Source: Promethearchaeota archaeon (GTDB lineage Archaea > Asgardarchaeota > Lokiarchaeia > Sigyniarchaeales > SOKP01). Taken from it: a stretch of 64,000 nucleotides of DNA. The notes under the pieces are model-generated. The model was given only the letters and a program-made list of their open reading frames with translations, had not been told where the DNA came from and ran no database searches. The stretch is from NCBI GenBank assembly GCA_019894975.1, contig JAGXNO010000002.1, forward strand, positions 64,001 to 128,000, in the 5' to 3' direction. The translations under genes were made by a program, and so were the position numbers. This document shows positions 5,348 to 19,886 of this stretch, one piece after another (positions within the stretch are counted from its first letter, which is position 1; every line of letters starts with the position of its first letter).

Positions 5348-8300
5348 TTGACTTATATCAAAAAAATTTCTATGACGGGTTTTAAGTCATTTGGAGATCG
5401 TACTGTAACGATTAAACTTTCAAGTGGTTTTACATGTATAGTAGGGCCTAATGGTGCGGGTAAATCAAATATTATAGATGCTCTATGTTTCGCATTGGGA
5501 AGATTAAGTAAAAAAACAATGAGAGCAAAAAGTCTAGAGGACCTAATTTTTGCAGGCTCTAGAGGGAAAAATCCGTCTCAAAGAGCATCGGTTACAATGT
5601 ATTTCGACAATTCTGAGAACGTTTTTCCAGGTGGAACAGAGAGTTTTGAAATTACACGTACAATAAAAAGAGGTGGGGGTGGTGGTTATAAAATGAATGG
5701 CGTAAAATCCACTCGTCAACAAATTCTTAATGCCTTAGCAGCTGCAAATGTTGATCCTGATGGTAGTAATCAATTTGTTCTACAAGGAAAGATTGTTGAA
5801 CTCACACATATGAATACAGAAAATCGTAGACTTTTCATTGAAGATCTGATAGGCCTTCAAAAATATGATGAAATGAAAGATGCAACATTAAAAGAATTAG
5901 AAAAAGCAGAGAGAGATTTAGGTCAATTCGAAGCAATTTTCAAAGAAGTGTCTTCTCAGCTTAAAAAAGTTGAAAAGGAAAAGAGTGATGCTTTAGCTTG
6001 GAAGGAATTAGATGAAAAAATTAATTTTTTGAATTCACAGTTAATAGCTCTTAAAATTTCGAAGTTAAGAAAGGAAGAGGATGATTTAGAAAAAAAAATA
6101 GAAAATTCACTAAAGTTTATTGAAGAATTTGATGAAAAAATAAGCAGACAAGAAGCTTTGCTTAAACAAGAATCACTTGTTATGGATAATATTCAAAAAA
6201 CTATAAATGAGAAAGAAAAAGAAAGAGAAGAAATTAACGAGAATATTACTCAAATAAAAACAAAAATTTCTTCTAGTCAAACTACCTCAAACCTAGCTCA
6301 AAAATCTATTGAAAAACTTTCCCTTGAAATAAAAACATTAGAAAATTTACAAATGGTGCTTGAAGAAGGGCAAAGTATCGATTTATTAATAGAAGGTGTA
6401 TCAAAAGATATTTCTGAATGTGAGAATAACATAGAAGAATCTAAAAAAGAAATTGAATTAAAACAGCAAACTCAGTCTGAATTAGATACAAAAATAAAAG
6501 ATAATGAGGAAGAAAAATCACTGTTTAATGCTGAAATTTCCAAAATACAGCAAAATATATCTTCAGATAATGCCCAAATCAAAGTCCTTAAGGAAAATAT
6601 ACAAAAGAATGAAAATAAAAGAAATAAGTTAGAAAATGAACTTAATAAATTAATAAAAGAAGCAGAATCCATAGATGAGGCTATAGAGAAAACTAAAAAG
6701 GAAGAAAGCGAAGTTAGAAAACAAATTGATAACTTGAAGGTTAAAATTTCAGAAGAGAATCAAAATCAAAAGGACCTCGAGAATAAAATAACTTCTGTTC
6801 AAGAGGAAAAAAATCAATTAAATCTTCAGCTTTCAAGTCTTCAATCTAATTTATCTTCATTAAATACAGAAATTACTATGAACAACAATAACATCAATGA
6901 TTTGAAAAATAAAAAAAGCGCAATTGAAAAAAAAATCCAAGAATTAAGTAAGGGCAAAGATACAGAGGATGTGGTTAAGGAACTATTACGAGAAAATGAA
7001 AATAAGAATAAAGTTATAATCGATTTAAGAACAAAATTAAAGGAAGAGAATTCCAATTACAAGAAGAATGAGCAGAACTTGGAATTATTAAGAATGAAAA
7101 AATTTTCTTTAGATTCCGAAATTAATGATAATAAAGGCAAAATCGATAATATTAACACAGAGTTAAAGATATTCACAAAAGAAACAACTAATTTGGAAAG
7201 AGAGAAAAATAAACTAGATATCCAGGTTACTACTTTAAATAAGAATCTCTTAGACATTGAAAAAGGTCTCGAAAAATTCACCAGTAAGAATGTAAACATC
7301 CAAAGACGTTTAGAAGAACTTACGAAAGAAAAAGATGGTATTGTGAAGAAAATTGAATCTTCTGACGTGGAATATGAGAAGAATACACAAGATATTACAG
7401 GAATTCTACAGATTTTAAATATGCTCACTCAAAACATTAATATTTCAGTTGAATCTATAAAAAGTAACATACAACAATCAAACGCAGAGGCAATTGAGAA
7501 CTCAGCCGAAGATTTTAAGAAATTCATTTTAGACCTCGTAGATATAATGAAATCTGTTGAGGAAATTGGTGAAGATTCAGCCCAAACAACAGAAACGACA
7601 GAAATGATTGGTTCAATTATGGGGACTTTAAAACTATTTACAGATAATGCGGATAGCACAATAGGGCAGTTAATAGAGAGAGTAAAAGAATCTGCTGATA
7701 TTGAAATTCAAACTTCAACAACCAACTTCGATACTTTCGTTCAAGATCTTATGGAAATTCTCGAAGATGTGTATCTATCCTTAAGAAAATTAACTATGTC
7801 TAAAAGTCAAGAACTCTACAAACAACTTGATGAAATTTCAGAAAACATAAATTCTCAAACAGATGATTTAAATCTTACCGATAAAAGATTAACAGAAGCA
7901 AATATTCAACAAAAACATGATTCTGAAAACCTATCTGCTTTCAATCAAAGGCTTGAAGAAATTAGTAAAAGAAATCAAGAAATTAAAGATAGATCTACAA
8001 AAGTTGAAGAAGAAATCAATGAAAGAAAAGCTACCATTAATGAAAGAGAAAATCAAATTAAAGACGTTGACGCTGAAATAACAAAATTAGAGGAGCTTAA
8101 GGATGCACACTGGCAAAATATATCTAAGATCCAAGAAGATATTGAGAATGCACAAGCAGAATTAGAGAAATTAAGAGCTGATCTACAGGAATTACATGGA
8201 ATTCAAAATTTATTTGAAAATCTAACCGAAATTGATGAAACTATTCAAAATTTGAATCGATCAATCGAAGAAAAAAAGAATGTAATTGCTACTACTCAAG

Positions 8301-9802
8301 AAAGTATTGAAAAAACTCATGAAAATCAGAAATCCTTTCAAAGTGAAATTGATAATCTAATTCAGCAAAAAGAAAAATTTTGGGAAATTAGTGAAAACAT
8401 ACAGAAACAAATTGAAGATAAGAATTCGGAATTAGAGGAAATCCTGGACCGATTACGTGCTCTTGAAAATGTAATGAGAATTATTAATTCAATTGAAGAC
8501 TTAAAAAAAGAAAATACTGACGCTAAAAATAGCATTGATAGTTGTATTAAAAATGTAGAACAATTTAATACTGAAAGCGATAAAATTCAATTAAATGTTG
8601 ATCAAAAGCAGCAGATAATAGATGATTTTCGGAGTGAAAAAGATAAAGAAGTAGAATTACAAAAAGCCGCCCAAAAGAAATTAAATAAATTCAATAACGA
8701 TTTGCAAAAGCATCAAAAAAAATTAAATGAGTTAAATAAAAATAGAGAAAGAGAACAGAAAATCTATGAATTAACCCAGGATATAAGCAATACTGAGAAA
8801 CAAATTGAAGCGCTAATCAAAGAACTAGAAAGCTATCAAACAGAACTAGCCACTGGGAACGAAAAGAAAGACGGAAAACAGGGAGAAATTGATAAATTTA
8901 CTCAAGAAAAAGATGATTCTTGGAAGAAACAGAAACAATATCAAAAAATAATATCAGATTTGAAAGCCGACCATTCTATGGAAAATTCAAAAAAGAACAA
9001 TTTTGAATCCAAAAAACTTATTTGTGCTGATCAAATTGAAACTCTTTTCCATCGCTCAAAAGAATACGGGTCATTACCACCTGTCACAGATGATCTCTCA
9101 GAACCTGAATTGCAATCCGAGATTGTAGAAGTCACTAAGAATAAAAAATCTCTTGAACCCGTCAATTTAAAAGCTATTGAACAATTTGACACCGTAAAGG
9201 AAAGATTTGATGAGATTGATATGCGCCGGCAAACTATTCAGAGAGAGAGAAAATCGATTCTTGACGCTATCGATAAAATTGAGCTGGAAAAAACTCGTAC
9301 CTTCATGAAAGCGTATCATGAAATTAATCGTGAATTCTCCCGTATATTCCAAAAACTCTCTCCCGGGGGTTCCGCTAAGATGATATTAGATCGCCCTGAT
9401 AAGCCCTTCGAGGGAGGGATCAGCATCGAAGCTCGACCCCGAGGTAAAAAAATTTCAAGCCTGGAAATTTTAAGCGGCGGTGAAAAAACACTCGTGGCGC
9501 TCTCGTTTATCTTTGCCGTGCAGGAGTTTTATCCCGCGCCTTTTTATATTCTCGATGAGATTGATGCAGCCTTAGATGGTTCAAATACGCACAGAGTCTC
9601 GATGGTCATACAGGAGTTTTCAAAGCAAGCGCAGTTCTTAGTCATTAGTCACAGAGAGGAGAATATTGTAAATGCAGATCGAATTTACGGGGTTACAATG
9701 CAACAATCGGGTATTACAGATATCTTTAGTGTTGATTTGGAGGAGGAAGCGAAACGTCTACTGGAACTTGAAGATATCGAACCCACCATTACGGAAAATT
9801 AA
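5348..9802 (+). CDS. smc: chromosome segregation protein SMC (long, no canonical hinge recognisable)
   Basis: GFKSF, Walker A GPNGAGKSN, Q-loop VLQG, long coiled coils, PVNLKA, signature LSGGEK, Walker B ILDEIDAALD, H-loop ISH. Confidence 0.97.
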   Translation: MTYIKKISMTGFKSFGDRTVTIKLSSGFTCIVGPNGAGKSNIIDALCFALGRLSKKTMRAKSLEDLIFAGSRGKNPSQRASVTMYFDNSENVFPGGTESFEITRTIKRGGGGGYKMNGVKSTRQQILNALAAANVDPDGSNQFVLQGKIVELTHMNTENRRLFIEDLIGLQKYDEMKDATLKELEKAERDLGQFEAIFKEVSSQLKKVEKEKSDALAWKELDEKINFLNSQLIALKISKLRKEEDDLEKKIENSLKFIEEFDEKISRQEALLKQESLVMDNIQKTINEKEKEREEINENITQIKTKISSSQTTSNLAQKSIEKLSLEIKTLENLQMVLEEGQSIDLLIEGVSKDISECENNIEESKKEIELKQQTQSELDTKIKDNEEEKSLFNAEISKIQQNISSDNAQIKVLKENIQKNENKRNKLENELNKLIKEAESIDEAIEKTKKEESEVRKQIDNLKVKISEENQNQKDLENKITSVQEEKNQLNLQLSSLQSNLSSLNTEITMNNNNINDLKNKKSAIEKKIQELSKGKDTEDVVKELLRENENKNKVIIDLRTKLKEENSNYKKNEQNLELLRMKKFSLDSEINDNKGKIDNINTELKIFTKETTNLEREKNKLDIQVTTLNKNLLDIEKGLEKFTSKNVNIQRRLEELTKEKDGIVKKIESSDVEYEKNTQDITGILQILNMLTQNINISVESIKSNIQQSNAEAIENSAEDFKKFILDLVDIMKSVEEIGEDSAQTTETTEMIGSIMGTLKLFTDNADSTIGQLIERVKESADIEIQTSTTNFDTFVQDLMEILEDVYLSLRKLTMSKSQELYKQLDEISENINSQTDDLNLTDKRLTEANIQQKHDSENLSAFNQRLEEISKRNQEIKDRSTKVEEEINERKATINERENQIKDVDAEITKLEELKDAHWQNISKIQEDIENAQAELEKLRADLQELHGIQNLFENLTEIDETIQNLNRSIEEKKNVIATTQESIEKTHENQKSFQSEIDNLIQQKEKFWEISENIQKQIEDKNSELEEILDRLRALENVMRIINSIEDLKKENTDAKNSIDSCIKNVEQFNTESDKIQLNVDQKQQIIDDFRSEKDKEVELQKAAQKKLNKFNNDLQKHQKKLNELNKNREREQKIYELTQDISNTEKQIEALIKELESYQTELATGNEKKDGKQGEIDKFTQEKDDSWKKQKQYQKIISDLKADHSMENSKKNNFESKKLICADQIETLFHRSKEYGSLPPVTDDLSEPELQSEIVEVTKNKKSLEPVNLKAIEQFDTVKERFDEIDMRRQTIQRERKSILDAIDKIELEKTRTFMKAYHEINREFSRIFQKLSPGGSAKMILDRPDKPFEGGISIEARPRGKKISSLEILSGGEKTLVALSFIFAVQEFYPAPFYILDEIDAALDGSNTHRVSMVIQEFSKQAQFLVISHREENIVNADRIYGVTMQQSGITDIFSVDLEEEAKRLLELEDIEPTITEN
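9584..9802 (+). repeat. left copy of the 219-bp smc 3'-end direct repeat (part of intact smc)
   Basis: Aligns without gaps to 27095-27313. Confidence 0.95.
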
Positions 9803-9814
9803 TAAAAAAAGATA

Positions 9815-10408
9815 AATCTATTTTTTAACAATGAGAAGAAAAAATCGTAACAAGAAATTATCAATTGTCGATCAGGAAAAAATAGAAATTGCTTATAATT
9901 GTTGGCTATTAAGATCCGAAGATAATTTGACTGTTAAGATAGATCTCTCATGGGTTTCTCGAATCTATAGGCTCTTTTCAATCATCCTAATTTTGGGAGC
10001 AATACTTTCTTTATTTTTATGCATAATTTTAAAAGAGATCAATTCAGGATTGGTTGCGTTTGTTATTTTATTTGTTTGCGCATTACCTTTTATTTATAGA
10101 TATGTTTATTTCAAAATTCAGACCCACATTTTAATATTTGATAAATCATCGCAAATGGTTACATTTCTTAAGGTGTTTTCTAATATAAAAAAAAAAATTA
10201 GTAACCTAAATTTTTCTGAAATCGAATCACTAATTTGTGGAGAGGATCCCAGAGATTTAAGCATTTATAAATTAGAATTTGTGATAAGAGATAATAAAGT
10301 TAAGGTGTACTATGGGGAAAAGGATCTCTGTAAAAAACTCGGAAATTATATATCTAATTTCATGCAAAAACCTCTAAAATACAAATAATACTTAATCTAT
10401 TTTTAACA
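9815..10408 (+). repeat. 15-16 bp direct repeat AATCTATTTTT(T)AACA flanking the 9831-10388 gene
   Basis: Copies at 9815-9830 and 10394-10408 differ by one T. Confidence 0.6.
9831..10388 (+). CDS. hypothetical membrane protein (2 TM helices plus small beta-rich cytoplasmic domain)
   Basis: Two hydrophobic segments at aa ~48-92; 185 aa ORF flanked by a short direct repeat. Confidence 0.7.
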   Translation: MRRKNRNKKLSIVDQEKIEIAYNCWLLRSEDNLTVKIDLSWVSRIYRLFSIILILGAILSLFLCIILKEINSGLVAFVILFVCALPFIYRYVYFKIQTHILIFDKSSQMVTFLKVFSNIKKKISNLNFSEIESLICGEDPRDLSIYKLEFVIRDNKVKVYYGEKDLCKKLGNYISNFMQKPLKYK

Positions 10409-10411
10409 CGG

Positions 10412-10465
10412 GTTACTGACGTTTTTAGTGTGGATCTTGAGGATGTGGCTAAACAAAAACTTGAG
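10412..10465 (+). pseudogene. third, decayed smc 3'-end fragment
   Basis: Translates VTDVFSVDLEDVAKQKLE versus SMC ITDIFSVDLEEEAKRLLE (12/18 identical; smc 9713-9766). Confidence 0.85.
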
Positions 10466-10487
10466 TTTAAAATAAAAATAAGAAATT

Positions 10488-12956
10488 TTAGGTTCCTTTT
10501 CTGCATTTACTACAGGGTTCAATGTTTTGGTTAACTAGCCGTTTAAAGTATTTGGGAGTCATCGTAAACTGATGTCGCCTCTGACATGTAATGTGTACTT
10601 TTTTAGTATTGTTTTCGTATTCTGAGCTGAGAGTATATTTCAAGGATTCAATCATCTGGACGAATTCTTTTTTCGCGGTTAGTAGGCGTTCTCTATTCGG
10701 ATGGTTTTCCTCTGCGCAGAATTTGCACCAGCTTCCTTGGTAAACAGCACCTGGGGTGGTGTTCCACGTGTGGTTTTTGTTACATTTTATAGTGATGGGT
10801 CTGAACCGTCCTTTATATGGGGTTACGAGCTGCCCTCCTTTATTCTTAACAAAGTGCTGAAATTTTTCAGCAAATACATCCATATTGCATTTGGGGCAAA
10901 GAAACTCAATATCTTTATAGGTCCTTTTTAACCAATATGGTGACTTTATGGTAAATTTATGTGCTTTTGGACATTTATACATTAATGGCGTTTTAGCATT
11001 AACATATTCACTAATCAATTCACAATTAAACATTTGCCCTATTTCTCGAAATTCTTCTGTTGTACCTTTTTTATTTCCAGCACATTCTGAGCACCAATTG
11101 TCTTTATAAACGGAATCTGGTGTGGTGGTCCACTGGTGCCCCTTTTCACACATAAGAGTTACTTCCTTTTTTTGTGAAAAATATGGTGTTATTAAAGTAC
11201 CTCCTAGGTTTTCGACATATTCTCTAAATTTTTTCGCGTGTTTATTTTCATGAATATTAAATTCTTTATAATCATATCTCGGGATGTCTTTTAGAGTCTT
11301 ACCTGTTTTTCTTTCATATTCTTGTTCGATATAGTCTTGCATGTTATCGTAGGGAACGATTTCGTCATCTGGGATTTGAAGGAGGGTAACTCCATTTTCC
11401 TCGCACAGTTTTAATTTGAGAGCGTCTTCTTTCTGTATATTTTTTAGCTCCTCATCAGTTTTTCGAAAAGCTTTTTTCCGGTGTTGGATTCCTTGATATT
11501 CGAAGGCTAATTGTAGATCTTTGTTGTATCCGTCAAGTTCCATTTGATTCCCGTTTTCATTAATCAACCATTCGGGATAACTTTTTGGGAACGGTCTTTT
11601 AAAAATCTTTTCGAAGAATTTTCTACAAATTGCCTCACTCACGTATATGTGACAATGTGGACACCAAGTGTCTTGATACGCTACGCTTTCATATGTGGGA
11701 AAAAAGTGATGGCCTTCAGCACATTCAAGGTGTAGTCTCGATTTAGCATTTTTCAAGGATTTTGTATGACATTTTCCCTTCTTTTTAGCGACGATTTCCC
11801 TTATGGTATCTATTGAGACATGTGTCTGGGTTCGTACATATTGTTGATATTGCTCTTTAGTGAAAATCCTATTTAATTGGTTTCGAGTGGAAGTATCGCT
11901 GAGTAAGAGCCATTCTTGAAGGTCGTATGCGTTGTATTTACCCGGATTTTCCATCATTTTTGCTTTAATAACCTTGTTTAAAGTGTCATTTTCTCTTATT
12001 TTTGTTGCGAGAGAGGAAAAGTTTGAAATTATTCCCATCTGGTGTTTGATTGTGCTGGTCCTGTCATCCTTGGGCAATTTGGCCAATTTTCTTCCCTTCT
12101 CATCTATGAAGTTGATAAAGGTCTTGGTTGGTTGGAAATTTTTCATCCAATTACCGGATTTATTGAATTCAATGATATATTGTTTTATTGGTTCAATGTT
12201 ATGGAGATACTCTAAAAATCCATCAAATAAGGCTCCTTGAGTCTTAATCGGATTATCATTGCTAATGTTATTCTGTTGATTTCCTAAGGCAGAACTGCTA
12301 AAATCCGATTCAAATGCTTTTAGATCATCTCGTATAACGTGTTCAAATCGAGGGGGTTCAGGATCATCCCACAGCTCAGTGATTATGATAAACACTTCCC
12401 TTATCAACCACCGCAAATAAATGACAAAATCTTGGCAAAACCTCTTATTTACTTTGATTTTTTTTTGTAATAATTTTAGCCACTTATCGAACTCTTTCTC
12501 ACGCATGTTGTATAGGTGTATTAGAAATTTATTTTTAACTCGAACTTGATGGTCCATAATTGGGCTAATCTTTTCGTAGAGATCATTAATGGTCTCTTGG
12601 TTTAATTCCAATTCTCTTCTAATTTGAGTCGTTTCATATTCTAATGATCGTATGTGAGGGAAAACGAGTCGAGCCACCACAATTTTAAAATCATCTCTAA
12701 ACCTTACGGGGAAGTCAGAGTCTTTAAATACCCGTTCTATTGGGCTTTTTCGGTTTCGAAGTCTATTATAAACACTTGAGAAAAAACCATTTGTTTGATT
12801 ATTATTATCGATTTTAATATCAATTTCAGTATCATCCTCTCTTTCTTTTTTGATTTCTGTACCACAATTTTGACAAACAATCGATTCACTGATATTAGTA
12901 GTGTTCAGAAGCTCTGCGGGAAACTTTGTCCCACAGTAATCGCAATTTTCATCCAT
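10488..12956 (-). CDS. multi-zinc-ribbon PD-(D/E)XK (Vsr/restriction-like) endonuclease, homing-endonuclease-like
   Basis: N-terminal CxxC..CxxC; nuclease core SEAICR...ELDGYNKDLQLAFEYQGIQH; five C-x3-H...CxxC repeats (CAEGH, CEKGH, CPKAH, CNKNH, CQRRH). Confidence 0.8.
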   Translation of the reverse strand: MDENCDYCGTKFPAELLNTTNISESIVCQNCGTEIKKEREDDTEIDIKIDNNNQTNGFFSSVYNRLRNRKSPIERVFKDSDFPVRFRDDFKIVVARLVFPHIRSLEYETTQIRRELELNQETINDLYEKISPIMDHQVRVKNKFLIHLYNMREKEFDKWLKLLQKKIKVNKRFCQDFVIYLRWLIREVFIIITELWDDPEPPRFEHVIRDDLKAFESDFSSSALGNQQNNISNDNPIKTQGALFDGFLEYLHNIEPIKQYIIEFNKSGNWMKNFQPTKTFINFIDEKGRKLAKLPKDDRTSTIKHQMGIISNFSSLATKIRENDTLNKVIKAKMMENPGKYNAYDLQEWLLLSDTSTRNQLNRIFTKEQYQQYVRTQTHVSIDTIREIVAKKKGKCHTKSLKNAKSRLHLECAEGHHFFPTYESVAYQDTWCPHCHIYVSEAICRKFFEKIFKRPFPKSYPEWLINENGNQMELDGYNKDLQLAFEYQGIQHRKKAFRKTDEELKNIQKEDALKLKLCEENGVTLLQIPDDEIVPYDNMQDYIEQEYERKTGKTLKDIPRYDYKEFNIHENKHAKKFREYVENLGGTLITPYFSQKKEVTLMCEKGHQWTTTPDSVYKDNWCSECAGNKKGTTEEFREIGQMFNCELISEYVNAKTPLMYKCPKAHKFTIKSPYWLKRTYKDIEFLCPKCNMDVFAEKFQHFVKNKGGQLVTPYKGRFRPITIKCNKNHTWNTTPGAVYQGSWCKFCAEENHPNRERLLTAKKEFVQMIESLKYTLSSEYENNTKKVHITCQRRHQFTMTPKYFKRLVNQNIEPCSKCRKGT

Positions 12957-13144
12957 TTAACTGCAATAGAGTTAGGAGTATATAAAGAAAAAGATATAAC
13001 AATATATTTAATTCAAATATCTTCTCTAATTTTTTTCATTTTTTCTCTAATTATAACTACCTTACACAAAATTCTGCCCGACAAACTATATATAAAGGAT
13101 TTACAATTATCCAAGATTAGTACAAAAATTTAGGTAAAAAAAAT

Positions 13145-14224
13145 ATGAAAACAACACGAAAATTACTATTAATCAGCTTCTTGTGTATACCGCTAACTAC
13201 TCTCCTCCTGATTCCTATGGCACCTGCTCAAGATATTATCTACGATGGAGCGGATACAGAGAATTGTCCATCTTTTTCTGTCTACCCTTCTGAAGTGTAT
13301 GAGTTTAATGTAACTGATGAGAATCCATCATTCCAGAGATTTCCTGAGAGTTATGATAAAATTATAATTCAAAAAGCAAATGTATCGGATCTCAACGTGA
13401 ATACTATTCCACCTCTTATCTATGGGAACGGTGTCAATGTATGGAGTACGATATATGAGATAAATGCGACTTCTGGAACAATCGACTGGTCTCACACAAA
13501 TTGGCTTTCTGCGTATTGGAACGAAAGTCTTGGGTTTTGTGGAACATTGAATTTAGCTTCTTCTGTAGCCCCATTCATCCCGTTGGATAGTGGCACAGGA
13601 ACAGTCTCAGTATCCATTCTAAATGCAGTTATTGATTGGATCAACTATTCTCAAGTTAAGTTTGAGCATAGGAAAATATACCCCGCCATCCATTCTTTCC
13701 ATATTTGGAATGAGTCAGTGACTCATTTTATAAAAGCTAATTACACTGAAGATGGAATCTTACTCAAGAGTGAAAATAATTTTGAATTTGACTGGGCATT
13801 TAATTACTCCTTGATGTCGCAACCAGCCCAATTACCACCTGTGTTTTCCTTTGCAACTACTAGCGGTCTCTCGACGGTACCTTCAAGACATATTTCGCTC
13901 GATCTTACAATTCCTGCTGCGGACAATAATAACGACGGATTGCCAGATACAGACTATCAATACAGTGTCTTTGAAAGTGGAGTGTGGTCAGATTGGGGTA
14001 TAGTGACTCCTTTTATCGACTATGATCTCGGATCAGTTCCGGCAGGGAATTACACTCTCACAGTCGAAGTGAAGAACATGTACGGTATTACCCAAGAGCA
14101 AATCGAAGTTGAATATATTCCTTCCAGCAGTGATGCGATTCCGGGATATTCCGCATTAATCATTTTAGTAATCTTAGGATTTAGTGTTTCTATTCTACTC
14201 GGTAAATATAGAAAAAAGTTGTAA
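13145..14224 (+). CDS. Loki-CTERM cell-surface protein (paralog A)
   Basis: Signal peptide, many NxS/T sequons, Ig-like C-terminal domain, AIPGY + TM + basic tail. Confidence 0.85.
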   Translation: MKTTRKLLLISFLCIPLTTLLLIPMAPAQDIIYDGADTENCPSFSVYPSEVYEFNVTDENPSFQRFPESYDKIIIQKANVSDLNVNTIPPLIYGNGVNVWSTIYEINATSGTIDWSHTNWLSAYWNESLGFCGTLNLASSVAPFIPLDSGTGTVSVSILNAVIDWINYSQVKFEHRKIYPAIHSFHIWNESVTHFIKANYTEDGILLKSENNFEFDWAFNYSLMSQPAQLPPVFSFATTSGLSTVPSRHISLDLTIPAADNNNDGLPDTDYQYSVFESGVWSDWGIVTPFIDYDLGSVPAGNYTLTVEVKNMYGITQEQIEVEYIPSSSDAIPGYSALIILVILGFSVSILLGKYRKKL

Positions 14225-14283
14225 TACTAAATTTATAATTATTTTTTATTCTTTTTTTATGTTCTTTAATAATATTTTCTACT

Positions 14284-14580
14284 CTAGTAATCTTTGTTTA
14301 GAAGCTCTTCTGGGATTTTATAGGTAAGACCCTCAACTCCATGAAATTTAATCATCGTAGTAGCAATTCTTTTCCTTAATTCTAGATAATTTCCTTCAGT
14401 TGGTTGCCAAGCAGATACCGCACTAATTCCCTTTTCATCGGTACCAAAACATAACGGTAAAGGATTCGTCCCGATTTCAGCAGCATCAGGATCAGGATTC
14501 TCAAATAGTTTTTGCAGAATACTTCCTACTTCCACGGACTTACTTGGGGGATACCACATAGTAACAATTATGACTGGCAT
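14284..14580 (-). CDS. small hypothetical protein
   Basis: 98 aa ORF with a GGTGA-type SD upstream and a plausible alpha/beta pattern. Confidence 0.7.
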   Translation of the reverse strand: MPVIIVTMWYPPSKSVEVGSILQKLFENPDPDAAEIGTNPLPLCFGTDEKGISAVSAWQPTEGNYLELRKRIATTMIKFHGVEGLTYKIPEELLNKDY

Positions 14581-14712
14581 TTTTCACCCTCTTTAAATTT
14601 CTAACCATTCTATGAATTTCTCTTAAAAATGATGGTTAAGGAGTTTTGAAGAGTGTATCTTACTTAAACTTTTTTCAATTATGTCTAGAAACAGATTAAT
14701 TTGATTTGGATT

Positions 14713-16710
14713 TCATCTTTTCAAACGCTTTCTACCAAGGTATATGACTTCACAGCAGAATATTCCTGCTAATATGATTATACCATAGAACAGAATATCA
14801 TTTATAGTAATTTGGCTATTAATGGTGATTTCGGTATCACTTTCAGGAGCTTCCTCATATTGAAAGATGTAAAGAGTTTTCCAAGGAACCTTATTTCCGA
14901 CTGTATCTTTTGTGCTGACTCTTAAGTAATAAGTACCGTTAGACACTGAGGGTGGATCGAAAACGGTGTAAGCGGTAAAAGAATTAGAGATTCCGTTGGG
15001 ATCGGTGCCCCAATAATAATAATAACCGGCAACGTCCGTGTGATAATCAGATCCATCTCCCCACACAAAGATGGGATTAGAAACATTATTCTGAGTTACA
15101 CCACTTTGAGTTGAACCCGCTAGTTGATTACAAGTTGTCGGGTTCTCTGGGGCCGTACCGTCATATTTAAAAGTATAATACGTCATCCAGGAAGCATTAT
15201 TTCCAAAGTTATCCTTGGTTTTTATCCGTAAATAATAAATTCCAGTGTTTACTTGCGATGGATCAAGTTCAGGATCTGTTGTGAAAGAAATAGATGTCCC
15301 ATCGGGATCTGTGCCCCAATAATAGTAATATCCTTCCACACCGGCTCCTGAATCTGAGCCACTGGTCCAATTAAAGGAAGGATCATTAACTAGACCTTGC
15401 CATTTATCGCTTTCTGTATTCCCGATTAATTGTTCACAACCGAGTGGGTTAGTTGGAGCAGTTGCATCTATTTCTAATTTATAGTCCGAAATAAAATTCC
15501 CGTTGTTGTTTTCATTGAATTCATCAAGATAATCATCTACATCGATAATCCATCCAACATAGTAATCCCCACCAGGAATATTATCTGGTAAAATACCTGA
15601 CCATTGAGAATCAGTAGATTCAGTAGGAGGGAGAGTGGTTATTACGTCTGTTCCAATCAAATAGTCATCGTCTGAGAAGGTGGTATCAGGTGAAGCATAA
15701 AACGAAACGGTGAAAGGACTTGGTGTAGTTGTTCCAACATTTATGATTTTACAAGAAACTTCAAAATTAGTCACTCCAGCACCACCTAGGGTTGGAGTAA
15801 AACTTGCAAACTCATTACTTTCAGAAGCTAAATCAGGTTTATCAAGTAAAGTCTCATCAGCAGTAATCCAATTATTAATGCAATCGCGTTTATTCCAGTT
15901 AATTCTTGGCCCAAAATTAATTCCCATGCCAATCCAACTGTATGCAACGATAGAAAAGATACGACAGTTTGTTCCATCATATCTATATACGGGGCTTCCA
16001 CTTTGACCCCCTTCAATATCTAAACAATAAGAATGAGTATACTCATGGGCATCAATTCCATGGTCATGAGTCGAATACAAATTTTTTCCATTATCTAAAT
16101 CATACGGATAACCTGCTGTATTAAATATTCCGGTATAAATTGGATTCCAAGGAGAGGTCGTATACAGTTCCATCCATCCAGTCTGTAGTCCAATATCTCT
16201 ATCAAGTGTTAGTACAGCGAAATCATGATTACGATCCTCGTCACTTATCCACCGAGTATAAGTCCGCATGTTGATTGCCCATGCATGCCCAAATGGTTCA
16301 TTTCCATTATCAGCTCCCGGAACAACTTTTACACTATTTGCCCATCCTCCCCGTTCTTGAGAATAGACGCAATGCCCTGCGGTTAGTACGTGATTTTTAT
16401 CTATCATTGTACCTGAGCCATAAGTATTATAATCGTCCCATGACACAAATATTTTAACAATTGAACTCCAAGGATAACTGGTAGTGGGTGTAATTCGTAC
16501 TCTGTCATCAGTTCCACTTACATCACTTGGTACTATAAAAGAATTATCATCTTTTGAAGATTCAGGAACATTATAATTTGTTTTGGAATCAATCAAATAA
16601 TATGAAATTGTGAAAGATGTAATCAAGATGAGGAAAAGAGCCAATTTTTTATAGATAGGTTTTTTATCTGCCTTCTTATTATGATAATGAAATTTTACTT
16701 TTGGAATCAA
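14713..16710 (-). CDS. membrane-anchored trypsin-like (V8/glutamyl endopeptidase-type) serine protease with CARDB-like and two FN3-like repeats
   Basis: LTAGHC, HDFAV, GGQSGSP triad; PDL...DEFNENNN CARDB pattern; two ~100 aa repeats containing GYYYYWGTDP; N- and C-terminal TM segments. Confidence 0.9.
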   Translation of the reverse strand: MIPKVKFHYHNKKADKKPIYKKLALFLILITSFTISYYLIDSKTNYNVPESSKDDNSFIVPSDVSGTDDRVRITPTTSYPWSSIVKIFVSWDDYNTYGSGTMIDKNHVLTAGHCVYSQERGGWANSVKVVPGADNGNEPFGHAWAINMRTYTRWISDEDRNHDFAVLTLDRDIGLQTGWMELYTTSPWNPIYTGIFNTAGYPYDLDNGKNLYSTHDHGIDAHEYTHSYCLDIEGGQSGSPVYRYDGTNCRIFSIVAYSWIGMGINFGPRINWNKRDCINNWITADETLLDKPDLASESNEFASFTPTLGGAGVTNFEVSCKIINVGTTTPSPFTVSFYASPDTTFSDDDYLIGTDVITTLPPTESTDSQWSGILPDNIPGGDYYVGWIIDVDDYLDEFNENNNGNFISDYKLEIDATAPTNPLGCEQLIGNTESDKWQGLVNDPSFNWTSGSDSGAGVEGYYYYWGTDPDGTSISFTTDPELDPSQVNTGIYYLRIKTKDNFGNNASWMTYYTFKYDGTAPENPTTCNQLAGSTQSGVTQNNVSNPIFVWGDGSDYHTDVAGYYYYWGTDPNGISNSFTAYTVFDPPSVSNGTYYLRVSTKDTVGNKVPWKTLYIFQYEEAPESDTEITINSQITINDILFYGIIILAGIFCCEVIYLGRKRLKR

Positions 16711-16813
16711 GATATAACACGAAATTTCATCTAATTAATAGTACTTTTTAGAAAAAAGAATAAAAAGGAGACTATATTTCTTTCAAATATCATTTCTAAA
16801 AAATGATTACCAA

Positions 16814-18595
16814 ATGACAAATAACAAAACTATTACTAAAAAAGGATTAGTTTTCATTTTTCTATTGTTTCTAAATATAATCTCGTCAGTGTCTGTTTCT
16901 TATTCAACAGTAAAAACATCGGATCCCCTCCCCGAACTTTCTTATTCATGGCAGGATACGGTGTTTAGTTTTTCTCAAGAGTTAGATTGGGAAAATGAAA
17001 CGGTTACTATTGAAGATAGTAGTAATTATTCAGAGGTATATAATTCGATTCATTATACCTATAATTATGTTATCAATCGGTATATTGTAGAGAATCGAAC
17101 CGTATATCATACGGCAAATTATTCTTCTGCAATTGAACGAGTAACTACCGGAAATATGACACTTAATATGAATACGGACGTTTACCGAGTTAATATTGAT
17201 TACGGCTCAGGAGTAAAGCTTATATGGTTTGCTATGACACGAGGAACAATTAATTATGAATACTATCTGAAAAAAGATGTAAAAAGTTATACCTATTATG
17301 AACAGAACGACCGCCATATCGTAAGCCATTTTGAGGAACGGGATTTATCTACTGATGTACTAACAGATGAGTGGGATGAGATCTCCGATATCCCTGGGGA
17401 AGTAAATACTACTGTATCAGATAAAAAGGAATGGTATCCCTTTTTTAAGCGTTTATATTGGTCGGCAGACATGGTGAAACCAATGATATTAACCGTCCAA
17501 ATCTTCAATACTGAAAAGAACGATAAAATCGCGTGGGCTCATTTATTTCACGAGCTCTTTATATTTAAAGATAAGAATTCGGATTCCATCCTCACGATTC
17601 ATGATGAGGAAGAGTCGACTTCCCTTCCTACTATTGCTACTGGTACTGAGTTTGCGGGGATTGTGAACCCAATGGCGATAAATCAATACACCGAAAGGGA
17701 CACAAACGAATCGACACCTACACAGTCATGGAGTAGTTTTCCTTCCGATAAGCCGTTAGAAGAGATTGCTTCACAAATTGAGTTTATTCCGCCCACAGAA
17801 ACGTCAACTGCCAATGTGTCATGGGGAATTAAATATCCGAATACTCCGCTTTATTTAGGTCTCTTTGATAGCGAGCAACCTGGGAACAATTATGGTATCC
17901 CTTACAATGCCACCTATGAAGATATGTCTCCAACAAACCTTTCTTATGGGTTTGATTTTAAAGTAGATGAGAGTGAGGCAAATTTAGATATAACTTGGGA
18001 GATGGGAAAGCTCACCAATACTTCGGCATATAACGCAGTTCAGGGCTATGGATTAGTTATGCCCCAATATAACTTCTTCCTTTCGAGTTTTGATATTGAT
18101 GAAGTTGATCAACCGTTTTTATCGGTACCTCGAGATACGTTTTCCTTCATGTCAAATGATACGGTTGTTGCCGAAATTAATATGGGAGCAAGTAAGAAAA
18201 ATTATACACTTTATAATTCTACCGCAAGCATGGAATCTGTATTTCCCTCAGCGGGAGGGAGTATTCATAAAAATGTACTTCAGTTTGTAAGTGAAAATTC
18301 ATTCTACGATAATCCTTTAATAAACGGGATATTCACTTTACGAGACGCGGTCGCTGCAGACACTTCATTTATCGTTCAAGACGACTTATTCAGTATGGAA
18401 ACTCAGAACTATCCTATATGGAGTGGAGAAAAAATCGTCCATGATCCTTCTCTGATAATATATCATGGAGAACCACCAGAAAGTCCTGCTGATGACGAGG
18501 CGATTCCGGGTTATAATCTTCCTCTATTAATAGGGGTTGTAGGTATAATGACTAGCATTATTGTACGAAAGTACCGAAATAAACATAACTCATAA
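16814..18595 (+). CDS. Loki-CTERM cell-surface glycoprotein
   Basis: Signal peptide, beta-rich acidic body, IVHDP motif, AIPGY + TM + RKYRNK. Confidence 0.85.
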   Translation: MTNNKTITKKGLVFIFLLFLNIISSVSVSYSTVKTSDPLPELSYSWQDTVFSFSQELDWENETVTIEDSSNYSEVYNSIHYTYNYVINRYIVENRTVYHTANYSSAIERVTTGNMTLNMNTDVYRVNIDYGSGVKLIWFAMTRGTINYEYYLKKDVKSYTYYEQNDRHIVSHFEERDLSTDVLTDEWDEISDIPGEVNTTVSDKKEWYPFFKRLYWSADMVKPMILTVQIFNTEKNDKIAWAHLFHELFIFKDKNSDSILTIHDEEESTSLPTIATGTEFAGIVNPMAINQYTERDTNESTPTQSWSSFPSDKPLEEIASQIEFIPPTETSTANVSWGIKYPNTPLYLGLFDSEQPGNNYGIPYNATYEDMSPTNLSYGFDFKVDESEANLDITWEMGKLTNTSAYNAVQGYGLVMPQYNFFLSSFDIDEVDQPFLSVPRDTFSFMSNDTVVAEINMGASKKNYTLYNSTASMESVFPSAGGSIHKNVLQFVSENSFYDNPLINGIFTLRDAVAADTSFIVQDDLFSMETQNYPIWSGEKIVHDPSLIIYHGEPPESPADDEAIPGYNLPLLIGVVGIMTSIIVRKYRNKHNS

Positions 18596-18726
18596 TAACT
18601 CATAATTTTTTCTTTCTTTTTTATTTTTTCTTTAAATTTATAGCTCATAAATAAGGAGTAATATAAAATTTATATATAGGGTTTTTAATTATCTATGATA
18701 AGAACAAAAATTTAGGTAAAAACATT

Positions 18727-19770
18727 ATGAAAGCAACACGAAAATTATTTGCAATTAGTCTCTTTGTCATGACTTTGAGTTCTCTGTTCCTAATTACCTT
18801 AGTCCCTGCCCAAGAGATAATTTATGAGGGTGTTGATACCCAGAAAATTCCAGACTTCTCGATTTATCCCTCAGAACGATATATTTGGAATATTTCGGGG
18901 GGAGCGGGTTTCCAAGATGAGGAGTATCGTATAGATCATATTATCAAATCCAATAGAACAGACGAGTTTGAACCAGATTTCGCTACTTACCCCGTAGACG
19001 GGACGAGTGTGTGGGCTGACAGATATGTGATGAATAGTACTTCCAGTGAGATTATTAACCTTGAACCGGAATTACAGGTTATATATTGGAATGAAACAGA
19101 AGATCCTACTAACTTTTATTATCTTCCATTTGAAAGCAGCGCTGTAACGTCAGATAATTTGATCGATTATTGGCGTGATGATCTATATAATCTAGAGGGC
19201 CCTTTTGAAAATGTTCAGAGCTATTATAATATCTACTCTTTCAAGCTTTGGAATGAGTCTTCTAATAACGCCTATATGTTTGTGAATTATTCAAGTCAAG
19301 GAATACTTCAATATATGGAGGCATTTGATGTTAGTATCTTCATGCCAAACATTACTTTGATGTCGCAACCAGCGCAATTACAACCAGCATTTTCTTTTGT
19401 CACTGCTAGCGGCCTCTCGACTGTGACTTCAACGCAGATTTCTCTTGATCTTACAATACCTACTGCTGATAATAATAATGACGGGCTCCCTGATACTGAC
19501 TACCAGTACCGCGTTTTCGAAGATGGAGTTTGGTCAAATTGGAATGTAGTGACTTCTTTTATCAACTATGACCTCGGATCAGTTCCGGCGGGGAATTACA
19601 CTCTTACTGTCGAAGTTAAGAACATGTACGGGATAACTCAAGAGCAAATCGAAGTCGAATATATCCCTTCAAGCAGTGATGCGATTCCCGGTTTTTCTGC
19701 TGTGTTGATATTAGTGATATTAGGATTTAGCGTAACCATTTTACTAAACAAGTATCGAAAAAAGATGTAG
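18727..19770 (+). CDS. Loki-CTERM cell-surface protein (paralog B of 13145-14224)
   Basis: C-terminal ~137 aa highly similar to paralog A; AIPGF + TM + basic tail. Confidence 0.85.
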   Translation: MKATRKLFAISLFVMTLSSLFLITLVPAQEIIYEGVDTQKIPDFSIYPSERYIWNISGGAGFQDEEYRIDHIIKSNRTDEFEPDFATYPVDGTSVWADRYVMNSTSSEIINLEPELQVIYWNETEDPTNFYYLPFESSAVTSDNLIDYWRDDLYNLEGPFENVQSYYNIYSFKLWNESSNNAYMFVNYSSQGILQYMEAFDVSIFMPNITLMSQPAQLQPAFSFVTASGLSTVTSTQISLDLTIPTADNNNDGLPDTDYQYRVFEDGVWSNWNVVTSFINYDLGSVPAGNYTLTVEVKNMYGITQEQIEVEYIPSSSDAIPGFSAVLILVILGFSVTILLNKYRKKM

Positions 19771-19886
19771 CTTAAACTCTTAATTTCTTTTCTTTTATTC
19801 TTTTTTTATAGTTCTTTGATAATATTTTCTACTCCAGTAATATTTGATAAGCTAAAAAGTATATTTAATAAAACTGAGATAAAACA

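Follow-up and report, generated by a model that had tools for sequence, protein, structure and literature searches.

A decayed former smc end beside a Vsr-like endonuclease gene points to serial replacement of the smc 3′ end in a Promethearchaeota archaeon

The window analysed here is a stretch of 64,000 nucleotides (nt) from a Promethearchaeota (Asgard) metagenome-assembled genome (MAG), labelled G000 (GenBank assembly GCA_019894975.1, contig JAGXNO010000002.1, positions 64,001 to 128,000), in which the gene smc is followed by a large island that includes a short, decayed copy of an smc 3′ end, the subject of this study. Relatives with an empty site, such as G024, have a gene for a protein of 318 amino acids (aa) no more than about 90 nt after smc, and then scpB; in G000 these genes are separated from smc by the 17.3 kb of the island (9803–27094). 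Eight of the genus's 54 genomes have islands at the same site, as do one further Promethearchaeota MAG (L058) and two metagenome contigs. Their cargo differs and amounts to 6–37 kb, and the only gene common to all of them (eight islands compared) is an endonuclease-like gene, which always lies at the edge of the island nearest smc and is convergent with it.

The last 76 codons of the G000 smc gene with their stop (9572–9802, + strand) are a live replacement 3′ end borne by the element, mosaic in origin, and we refer to such ends as tails, with codons numbered back from the stop. A second copy of the tail, 72 codons and a stop (27095–27313, + strand), lies directly beyond the island and is followed by scpA-like and scpB genes; this is the displaced original tail of the host. 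Over 27095–27310 it is 94% identical to the live tail in amino acids and about 85% in nucleotides; overall, live and displaced tails share 81–85% of their nucleotides, with differences that are mostly synonymous and a longest identical run of about 20 nt. The smc-proximal end of the island holds, in order, a short 3′ flank, a gene for a 185-aa protein, the decayed copy (hereafter the relic) and the convergent endonuclease gene.

The smc relic and its counterparts in other genomes

Translation of 10412–10465 on the + strand gives VTDVFSVDLEDVAKQKLE, of which 12 of 18 residues are the same as in the live SMC tail. No + strand open reading frame (ORF) of 40 aa or more covers these positions, and 22 bp separate position 10465 from the stop codon of the endonuclease gene (10488–10490). 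The first-pass annotation of the window had proposed an smc-tail remnant here, outside the ORF track and 22 bp from that stop; translation and a check of the ORFs bear this out. In a tblastn search with the SMC C-terminus, only three places in the window are matched, namely smc itself, the copy at 27095–27310 and the relic. When the final 72 residues of SMC are scored without gaps (BLOSUM62) against the six frames of the island interior, the top value is 64, at the relic, and the best score in the rest of the window is 53. Markov shuffles of the island (n = 300) gave a mean of 35.3 and a maximum of 50, and shuffles of the query (n = 300) a maximum of 63, so that none of 600 reached the observed score. 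A nucleotide profile built from 29 live tails also matches 10410–10467 (E-value 4.6e-6 in about 190 kb, both strands). The comparison with shuffled sequence that had been proposed as a check on the match is thus significant, and on these alignments the match is a real relic of smc and not a chance likeness.

The relic as a whole extends over 10409–10487 (+ strand), and three parts can be distinguished. Positions 10409–10453 correspond to codons −31 to −16; 10454–10471 correspond to the last codons and the stop of the old tail, following a deletion of 31 nt; and 10472–10487 are the old 3′ spacer between that stop and the endonuclease gene. The first 14 codons of the translated segment (VTDVFSVDLEDVAK), together with two preceding codons recognisable at the DNA level, occupy the same tail positions as in smc. 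The last four residues, QKLE, align with the very end of the old tail, brought there by the 31-nt internal deletion. The alignment of 18 residues originally put forward therefore holds for its first 14 codons as positional homology and not for its last four residues.

The relic was also described in the first-pass annotation as more diverged than the other two copies, and this is the case. Its nonsynonymous divergence (pN) from live tails is 0.20–0.22, compared with a mean of 0.037 and a maximum of 0.127 among live tails over the same codons, and it thus exceeds the divergence of every live pair. It follows that the relic evolved without protein-level constraint. The search for the smc allele closest to it gave a divided answer: over the first 18 codons none stands out, with 32–39 of 54 nt matching for all 29 tails, and its type is visible only in its ending, which is of the kind seen in L069 and G043.

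In several other genomes a live smc tail stands where G000 has the relic, i.e. directly beside the endonuclease gene. This is so in G017, G023, G043, G007, G011 and contig L070, with gaps between tail and endonuclease gene of 16, 14, 23, 79, 32 and about 12 nt, respectively. The arrangement of tail and endonuclease gene that the first-pass annotation had postulated as an earlier unit is therefore live elsewhere. In the metagenome contig L069, the closest relative, the order is working tail, a flank of 27 nt, a full relic, a further 27 nt and the endonuclease stop; the endonuclease is 80% identical to that of G000 over residues 2–821. The L069 relic reads VSAVFSVDFEAEAKWLLELPDVPTKI plus a stop, in all 26 codons (profile E-value 7.5e-9). 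It has the same length as the live tail of G043, matches it at 18 of 26 residues and 55 of 84 nt, and shares with it an unusual type of ending (LLELPDVPSQI in G043). The live G043 tail lies at its 23-nt distance from an endonuclease gene that is likewise of the long type. Between the G000 and L069 relics, 34 of 42 nt match and 31 nt are missing in G000.

Vestiges occur in two more genomes. In G069 and G062, the first 12–13 nt of the relic are retained 10 nt past the smc stop, along with its last part, and the middle has been lost; the 12-mer at the start of the relic has only two other, unrelated matches in 505 kb at up to two mismatches. A third tail relic is thus present in G000, in L069 (in full) and, as vestiges, in G069 and G062, in answer to the question raised at the outset of whether other genomes have more than two tails at this locus. 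As judged from these alignments, the states form a series in which the old tail is live (G043), overwritten but complete (L069), and decayed in different ways (G000 on one hand, G069 and G062 on the other).

Two further loci were considered in this context. Contig L070 (Ga0209977_10064330) has a long-type endonuclease gene about 12 nt from an smc tail of the common type, with no relic, an arrangement that was probably produced by deletion between the A-rich runs after the tail and the relic. G057 was rejected as a genome with a second tail, as its smc gene is merely split across two contig ends.

Relatedness around codon −31 and the 185-aa gene

The working tail of G000 changes its nearest relative within its length. 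Over codons −72 to −32 it is 89% identical to L069, 82% to G069 and 74% to G017, and from codon −31 to codon −4 (from 9707 onwards) it is closest to G017, at 89%. The tail is thus of the long-endonuclease type up to 9706 and of the G017 type from 9707. Informative sites place the breakpoint between nt 807 and 810 of the last 903 nt of the gene (Fisher p 0.0012), and codon −31 starts at nt 808. The breakpoints of G069 (807/808, p 0.0017) and G062 (810/819, p 0.0002) fall at nearly the same place. The homology of the relic to smc begins at this same codon. A later event that placed a new tail in front of the old one, at a crossover point different from that of the island, had been suggested for this locus from the window alone; the comparison agrees, with codon −31 for the new tail and codon −76 for the island.

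The sequence that follows the new tail points to the same source. The 3′ flank at 9803–9830, which includes the left one of two direct repeats (9815–9830), is homologous to the junction of G017, where a second stop and a spacer are followed, on the minus strand, by the stop and last codons of a short-type endonuclease gene (the G017 enzyme has 694 aa). Local alignment of the 30 nt after the G000 stop with this junction gives a score of 16; 2000 shuffles and 2000 33-mers from AT-rich parts of the window all stayed below it. With the resident flank beside the relic these 30 nt show no similarity (p 0.4–0.7). The agreement with the G017 junction, and not with the resident flank, argues against a simple tandem duplication. 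Taken together, tail and flank point to a donor of the G017 type, of which only the tail and a vestige of 13–15 nt of an endonuclease gene would remain. Repair of the tail from the displaced host tail of the same genome was considered and dropped, as the sequence after the new stop is unlike that after the host fragment.

Between flank and relic lies the gene for a 185-aa predicted membrane protein (9831–10388, + strand), for which no Pfam or PHROG family was found and which has homologues elsewhere in the genus at 22–39% identity. It is bracketed by direct repeats, the right one of which (10394–10408) is a copy of 9815–9830 minus one T. The right repeat also matches the G017 junction (score 15, reached by none of 2000), and the repeat motif is unique in the window at up to two mismatches. 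The insert between the repeats of 15–16 nt measures 563 nt and has no obvious terminal inverted repeats. From its sequence, the repeat resembles a target duplication; an origin in a tandem array found no support, as the repeat is not found beside the homologues of the gene elsewhere.

No such gene stands between tail and relic in L069, G069 or G062. L069 holds a single, uninterrupted orthologous copy of the flank that is duplicated in G000, and the 185-aa gene is therefore a third and later insertion, separate from the others, into the flank. In this one respect the first-pass annotation, which had the new tail and the gene arrive together, is not upheld. It is highly improbable that tail and gene came as one small cargo unit and that the gene was afterwards lost from the three relatives: the gene does sit exactly between new tail and relic in G000, but the uninterrupted flank of the closest relative is the signature of an empty site, and the loss would have had to be exact, restoring a single copy of the repeat in L069, and to have happened again, differently, in G069 and G062. 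The proposal of a stack of at least two insertions is itself supported, and at least three events are recorded at the locus: the island at codon −76, the overwriting of the tail at codon −31 and the insertion of the 185-aa gene.

The endonuclease gene and the wider island

The endonuclease gene (10488–12956, − strand) encodes 822 aa, with an N-terminal Zn ribbon, a predicted Vsr-like PD-(D/E)xK core and four C-terminal treble-clef Zn ribbons. In Pfam only the Zn ribbons (DUF4379) are matched, together with a weak match to DUF2726, and among PHROGs the protein matches family 559 (E-value 1.6e-43). A search of the nuclease sequence against Protein Data Bank (PDB) chains gave no match. An AlphaFold 2 model of residues 395–590, with a predicted local distance difference test score above 85 over residues 50–170 of the domain, matches the homing endonuclease I-Bth0305I (3r3p_B, Z 9.2, root-mean-square deviation 3.2, 98 of 98 residues aligned), Vsr (1cw0, Z 8.7) and 3hrl (Z 7.6). 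These matches came from the exhaustive aligner; Foldseek against the PDB returned only weak rows for the core, with a probability of 0.75. According to the model, then, the core has a Vsr-like fold and is closest to I-Bth0305I. Pfam found no nuclease domain of LAGLIDADG or Hint derivation in the 822-aa protein. E441, D475, E486 and H492 are invariant in an alignment of four sequences, one of them the very diverged G011 homologue (28% identity in the core), and are candidates for the conserved acidic and histidine residues of the EDxHD type. No integrase family of Pfam is found among the ten largest ORFs of the G000 island.

The N-terminal module of the endonuclease (Zn ribbon and helical region) is reused in another protein of the same genome: a 1226-aa ORF on contig C94 (L045:7140-10820) is 69% identical to the endonuclease over its first 221 residues only. 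This paralogue was rejected as a comparable locus, as it lies in a row of co-directional genes with no duplication of a tail.

On its right side the island meets the smc sequence precisely at codon −76 in five genomes. The start of foreign sequence in smc on the left varies between genomes by more than 100 nt, and identity to the nearest relative of the host falls at or upstream of codon −76 in G017, G069 and G007. In these three genomes it is the nearest relative of the host whose tail most resembles the displaced one, and the working tail is foreign; more generally, the nearest neighbours of smc segments differ, the 5′ and 3′ parts being discordant. A displaced host tail is kept downstream in G000, G017, G007, G011, G043 and G069; it is absent in G023 and unassembled in G062. 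The G023 island (L046, L053; G023:C7:42274-78980) measures about 36.6 kb, with no displaced tail detected before the scpA-like gene. In G011 (L041:2950-3330), where the displaced tail begins at codon −41, the island's right end is short of its final 25 nt or so, a pattern that fits a deletion at the junction.

This right end, about 130 nt long (26963–27094 in G000), is conserved in G000, G017, G007, G043 and G069 and truncated in G011. It is non-coding and is conserved despite unrelated cargo (L039 about 10465-10592; L040 about 7995-8125; L051, L052, L041). In three of five genomes it closes with an ATG that opens a displaced-tail ORF of 76 codons. Because the island splits the smc-scpA-scpB operon, an outward-facing promoter for scpAB may lie in its right end. 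Rfam gave no match in 9000–28000, and a scan for promoters and terminators in 9700–10600 gave nothing beyond what shuffles give. The islands of G000 (13145–24181) and G011 (L041) share three cargo genes despite very different endonucleases: a trypsin-like protease (54% identity), a protein of 1009 aa that has a prenyltransferase-like match (45%), and another of 115 aa.

Some smc genes show related peculiarities. Three island-free genomes, G004 (L028), G019 (L030) and G012 (L026), have element-like smc 3′ regions, with Leu for Met before the DE of Walker B; their tails are closest to element-borne tails, which suggests past conversion or loss of an island. In MAG Spart_079 (L058:4980-5260) the smc frame stops early (LEEEFY), its end overlapping that of the convergent endonuclease gene, so that the last 20 or so residues of SMC seem dispensable.

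Origin of the relic and relation to known systems

The stretch 10409–10487 is the decayed rest of an earlier working smc end that was displaced by a second replacement, and the events were probably products of homing. The comparisons show that the island inserted at codon −76, supplying a diverged replacement tail followed by the convergent endonuclease gene and leaving the own tail of the host at its far end (27095–27313). In the long-endonuclease lineage (G000, L069, G069 and G062), the tail of this first element was of the type still live in G043, which ends in LLELPDVPSQI. Its last 31 codons were later overwritten by a copy of a G017-type allele, which brought its 3′ flank with it, and the old 31 codons were pushed downstream against the endonuclease gene, to decay there. 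L069 still keeps 26 codons and the stop, G000 has lost 31 nt and G069 and G062 the middle. The 185-aa gene then entered in the G000 lineage, between duplicated flank copies of 15–16 nt.

As for the mechanism, the endonuclease is predicted to cut smc alleles that lack the resistant tail, and repair would copy the tail and element from the donor. We infer homing because no integrase was found, because the endonuclease is the only shared gene and has a Vsr-like core, and because the left breakpoint within smc is not fixed and the displaced host tails follow the phylogeny of their hosts; allele-specific cleavage of smc is a predicted activity. A varying start of foreign sequence and a displaced tail of host type fit repair-mediated homing better than integration at a core site. 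The second event may have been a partial homing by a rival element, aborted or later trimmed, of which just the tail and a few final endonuclease codons were left.

Several observations weigh against this account of the relic. Between working tail and relic there is no second endonuclease gene or pseudogene, only the 13–15 nt or so that resemble the end of one, and a complete second element was never observed. The breakpoints have p-values of about 1e-3, and the three genomes that show them (G000, G069 and G062) do not count as independent cases. With synonymous sites near saturation among the tails (pS about 0.8), few sites remain on which to assign the donor. The displaced fragments beyond the right end of the island retain open frames, with a start codon in three of five genomes, and a function for them is possible. 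Finally, all sequences come from MAGs and metagenome contigs, and the G000 junctions are those of the assembly.

Other explanations have been weighed against it. Chance likeness in AT-rich sequence encoding many Glu, Lys and Leu residues is extremely unlikely; one of the 300 query shuffles did come within a point of the observed score, and the final four residues of the original alignment are not positionally homologous, but the profile E-value, the exact agreement of position and strand with the tail arrangement of other islands and, already on its own, the full-length orthologous relic of L069 contradict it. A local tandem duplication of the last 100–130 nt of smc within the resident element, by slippage or unequal exchange, followed by decay of the downstream copy, would do without a second element. 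This would account for the lack of a second endonuclease gene between the two copies and for the spacing in G069 and G062, where only 10 nt, in frame, lie between stop and relic. It is nevertheless very unlikely, given that the copies were not identical at their origin: the old ending is of the G043 type (PDVPTKI) and the new one of the common type (EDIEPTITEN). The flank of the new tail is like the G017 junction and unlike the resident flank, the nearest relative of the live tail changes at codon −31, and the structure of L069 already speaks against duplication.

On a model of integration by a site-specific recombinase, with an attP that contains a gene 3′ end as in elements of the e14 kind, the relic would be a hybrid att site that arose when integration occurred in tandem or repeatedly. 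Replacement of a 3′ end with the old end left as a pseudogene is described as the classical outcome for e14 at icd, giving icdC (PMC13626634), and the right junction at codon −76 is indeed precise in five genomes. However, none of the ten largest ORFs in the G000 island matches an integrase family (an undescribed kind of recombinase being possible), no gene besides the endonuclease is common to the eight islands, and identical runs between the two tails of G000 do not exceed about 20 nt. The left boundary of foreign sequence also varies by more than 100 nt, and the boundary of the relic (−31) differs from that of the island (−76). We regard this explanation, too, as unlikely.

Displacement of an earlier end by a second, homing-driven replacement has a close counterpart in the WHO elements of Torulaspora and Lachancea yeasts (Coughlan et al. 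2020, PMC7282813; Osborne et al. 2026 preprint, 10.64898/2026.08.13.744650). As outlined in these two accounts, a WHO endonuclease gene lies just downstream of an essential gene, each homing event swaps the 3′ end of that gene for a diverged, resistant copy, and the former 3′ end is pushed downstream, so that repeated events stack fragments. For their authors, homing elements that replace 3′ ends form a third category of homing element, one that is rare and known from no more than a few genera of yeasts. WHO elements and the smc islands have in common an endonuclease gene directly downstream of an essential host gene, a 3′ end replaced by a diverged copy (about 85% nt identity) with the old end decaying downstream, discordant phylogenies of the 5′ and 3′ parts of the host gene, and stacked 3′ fragments of which the newest lies beside the full-length gene. 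They differ in host and target, the island being archaeal and at smc and the WHO target being FBA1, and in the nuclease, which is Vsr-like PD-(D/E)xK with treble-clef Zn ribbons in the island and an intein-derived, HO-related LAGLIDADG enzyme with a zinc finger in WHO. Unlike in WHO, the endonuclease gene of the island is convergent with its target, 6–37 kb of variable cargo and a conserved right end of 130 nt are present, the newer unit of G000 has no endonuclease while the older unit is intact, and cleavage is predicted only. By this comparison the two systems are alike in mechanism but do not belong to one protein family.

Partial parallels are found in other systems. The e14 prophage (and phage 21) at icd of Escherichia coli leaves an icdC fragment, according to a report citing Hill et al. 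1989 (PMC13626634). As in the island, a housekeeping gene receives another 3′ end from the element and the original end becomes a C-terminal pseudogene at the far end; e14, in contrast, uses a site-specific recombinase and a core att, whereas in the island no recombinase was found, the left boundary varies and the nuclease is the conserved gene. The Vsr-like homing endonucleases of the EDxHD type, I-Bth0305I above all (PDB 3r3p and 1cw0, Z 9.2 and 8.7), offer the closest fold of the catalytic core and belong to a family with a homing role. The gene for I-Bth0305I lies in a group I intron that interrupts a phage gene, whereas the island gene is free-standing, much larger and provided with multiple Zn ribbons, and the two are about 21% identical in sequence. 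Mobile endonuclease ORFs of mitochondria that are fused to or follow genes, such as that at atp6 of Allomyces, also carry a duplicate gene end: the C-terminal coding part is replaced by a foreign copy linked to the endonuclease ORF, and the old end is kept downstream. These elements are organellar, use GIY-YIG or LAGLIDADG enzymes and have no cargo.

The locus thus presents an anatomy of the WHO type in an archaeon, where the nuclease is unrelated and the target is an essential gene of chromosome maintenance. It comprises a replacement tail that is putatively resistant, the displaced tail of the host and, stacked, an older tail, and intermediate states survive in related genomes. The relic turns what would be a single insertion into a dated series, from G043 through L069 to G000, G069 and G062. 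This series makes the model testable, since it predicts which tail alleles each nuclease should cut. Serial replacement also explains the mosaic evolution of the smc 3′ end in the genus, which is relevant to phylogenies based on smc, and would provide an integrase-free path for 6–37 kb of surface-protein cargo between Asgard genomes. We put forward tentatively, and as somewhat less than an even prospect, that Promethearchaeota carry an archaeal counterpart of yeast WHO, in which rival islands compete for the smc 3′ end with tails that resist their own nuclease, the relic recording one round in which a G017-type unit overwrote a long-type tail at a second target near codon −31. If this is true, homing by replacement of 3′ ends would be a general strategy across domains of life, and a route by which large cargos of envelope genes move between Asgard lineages.

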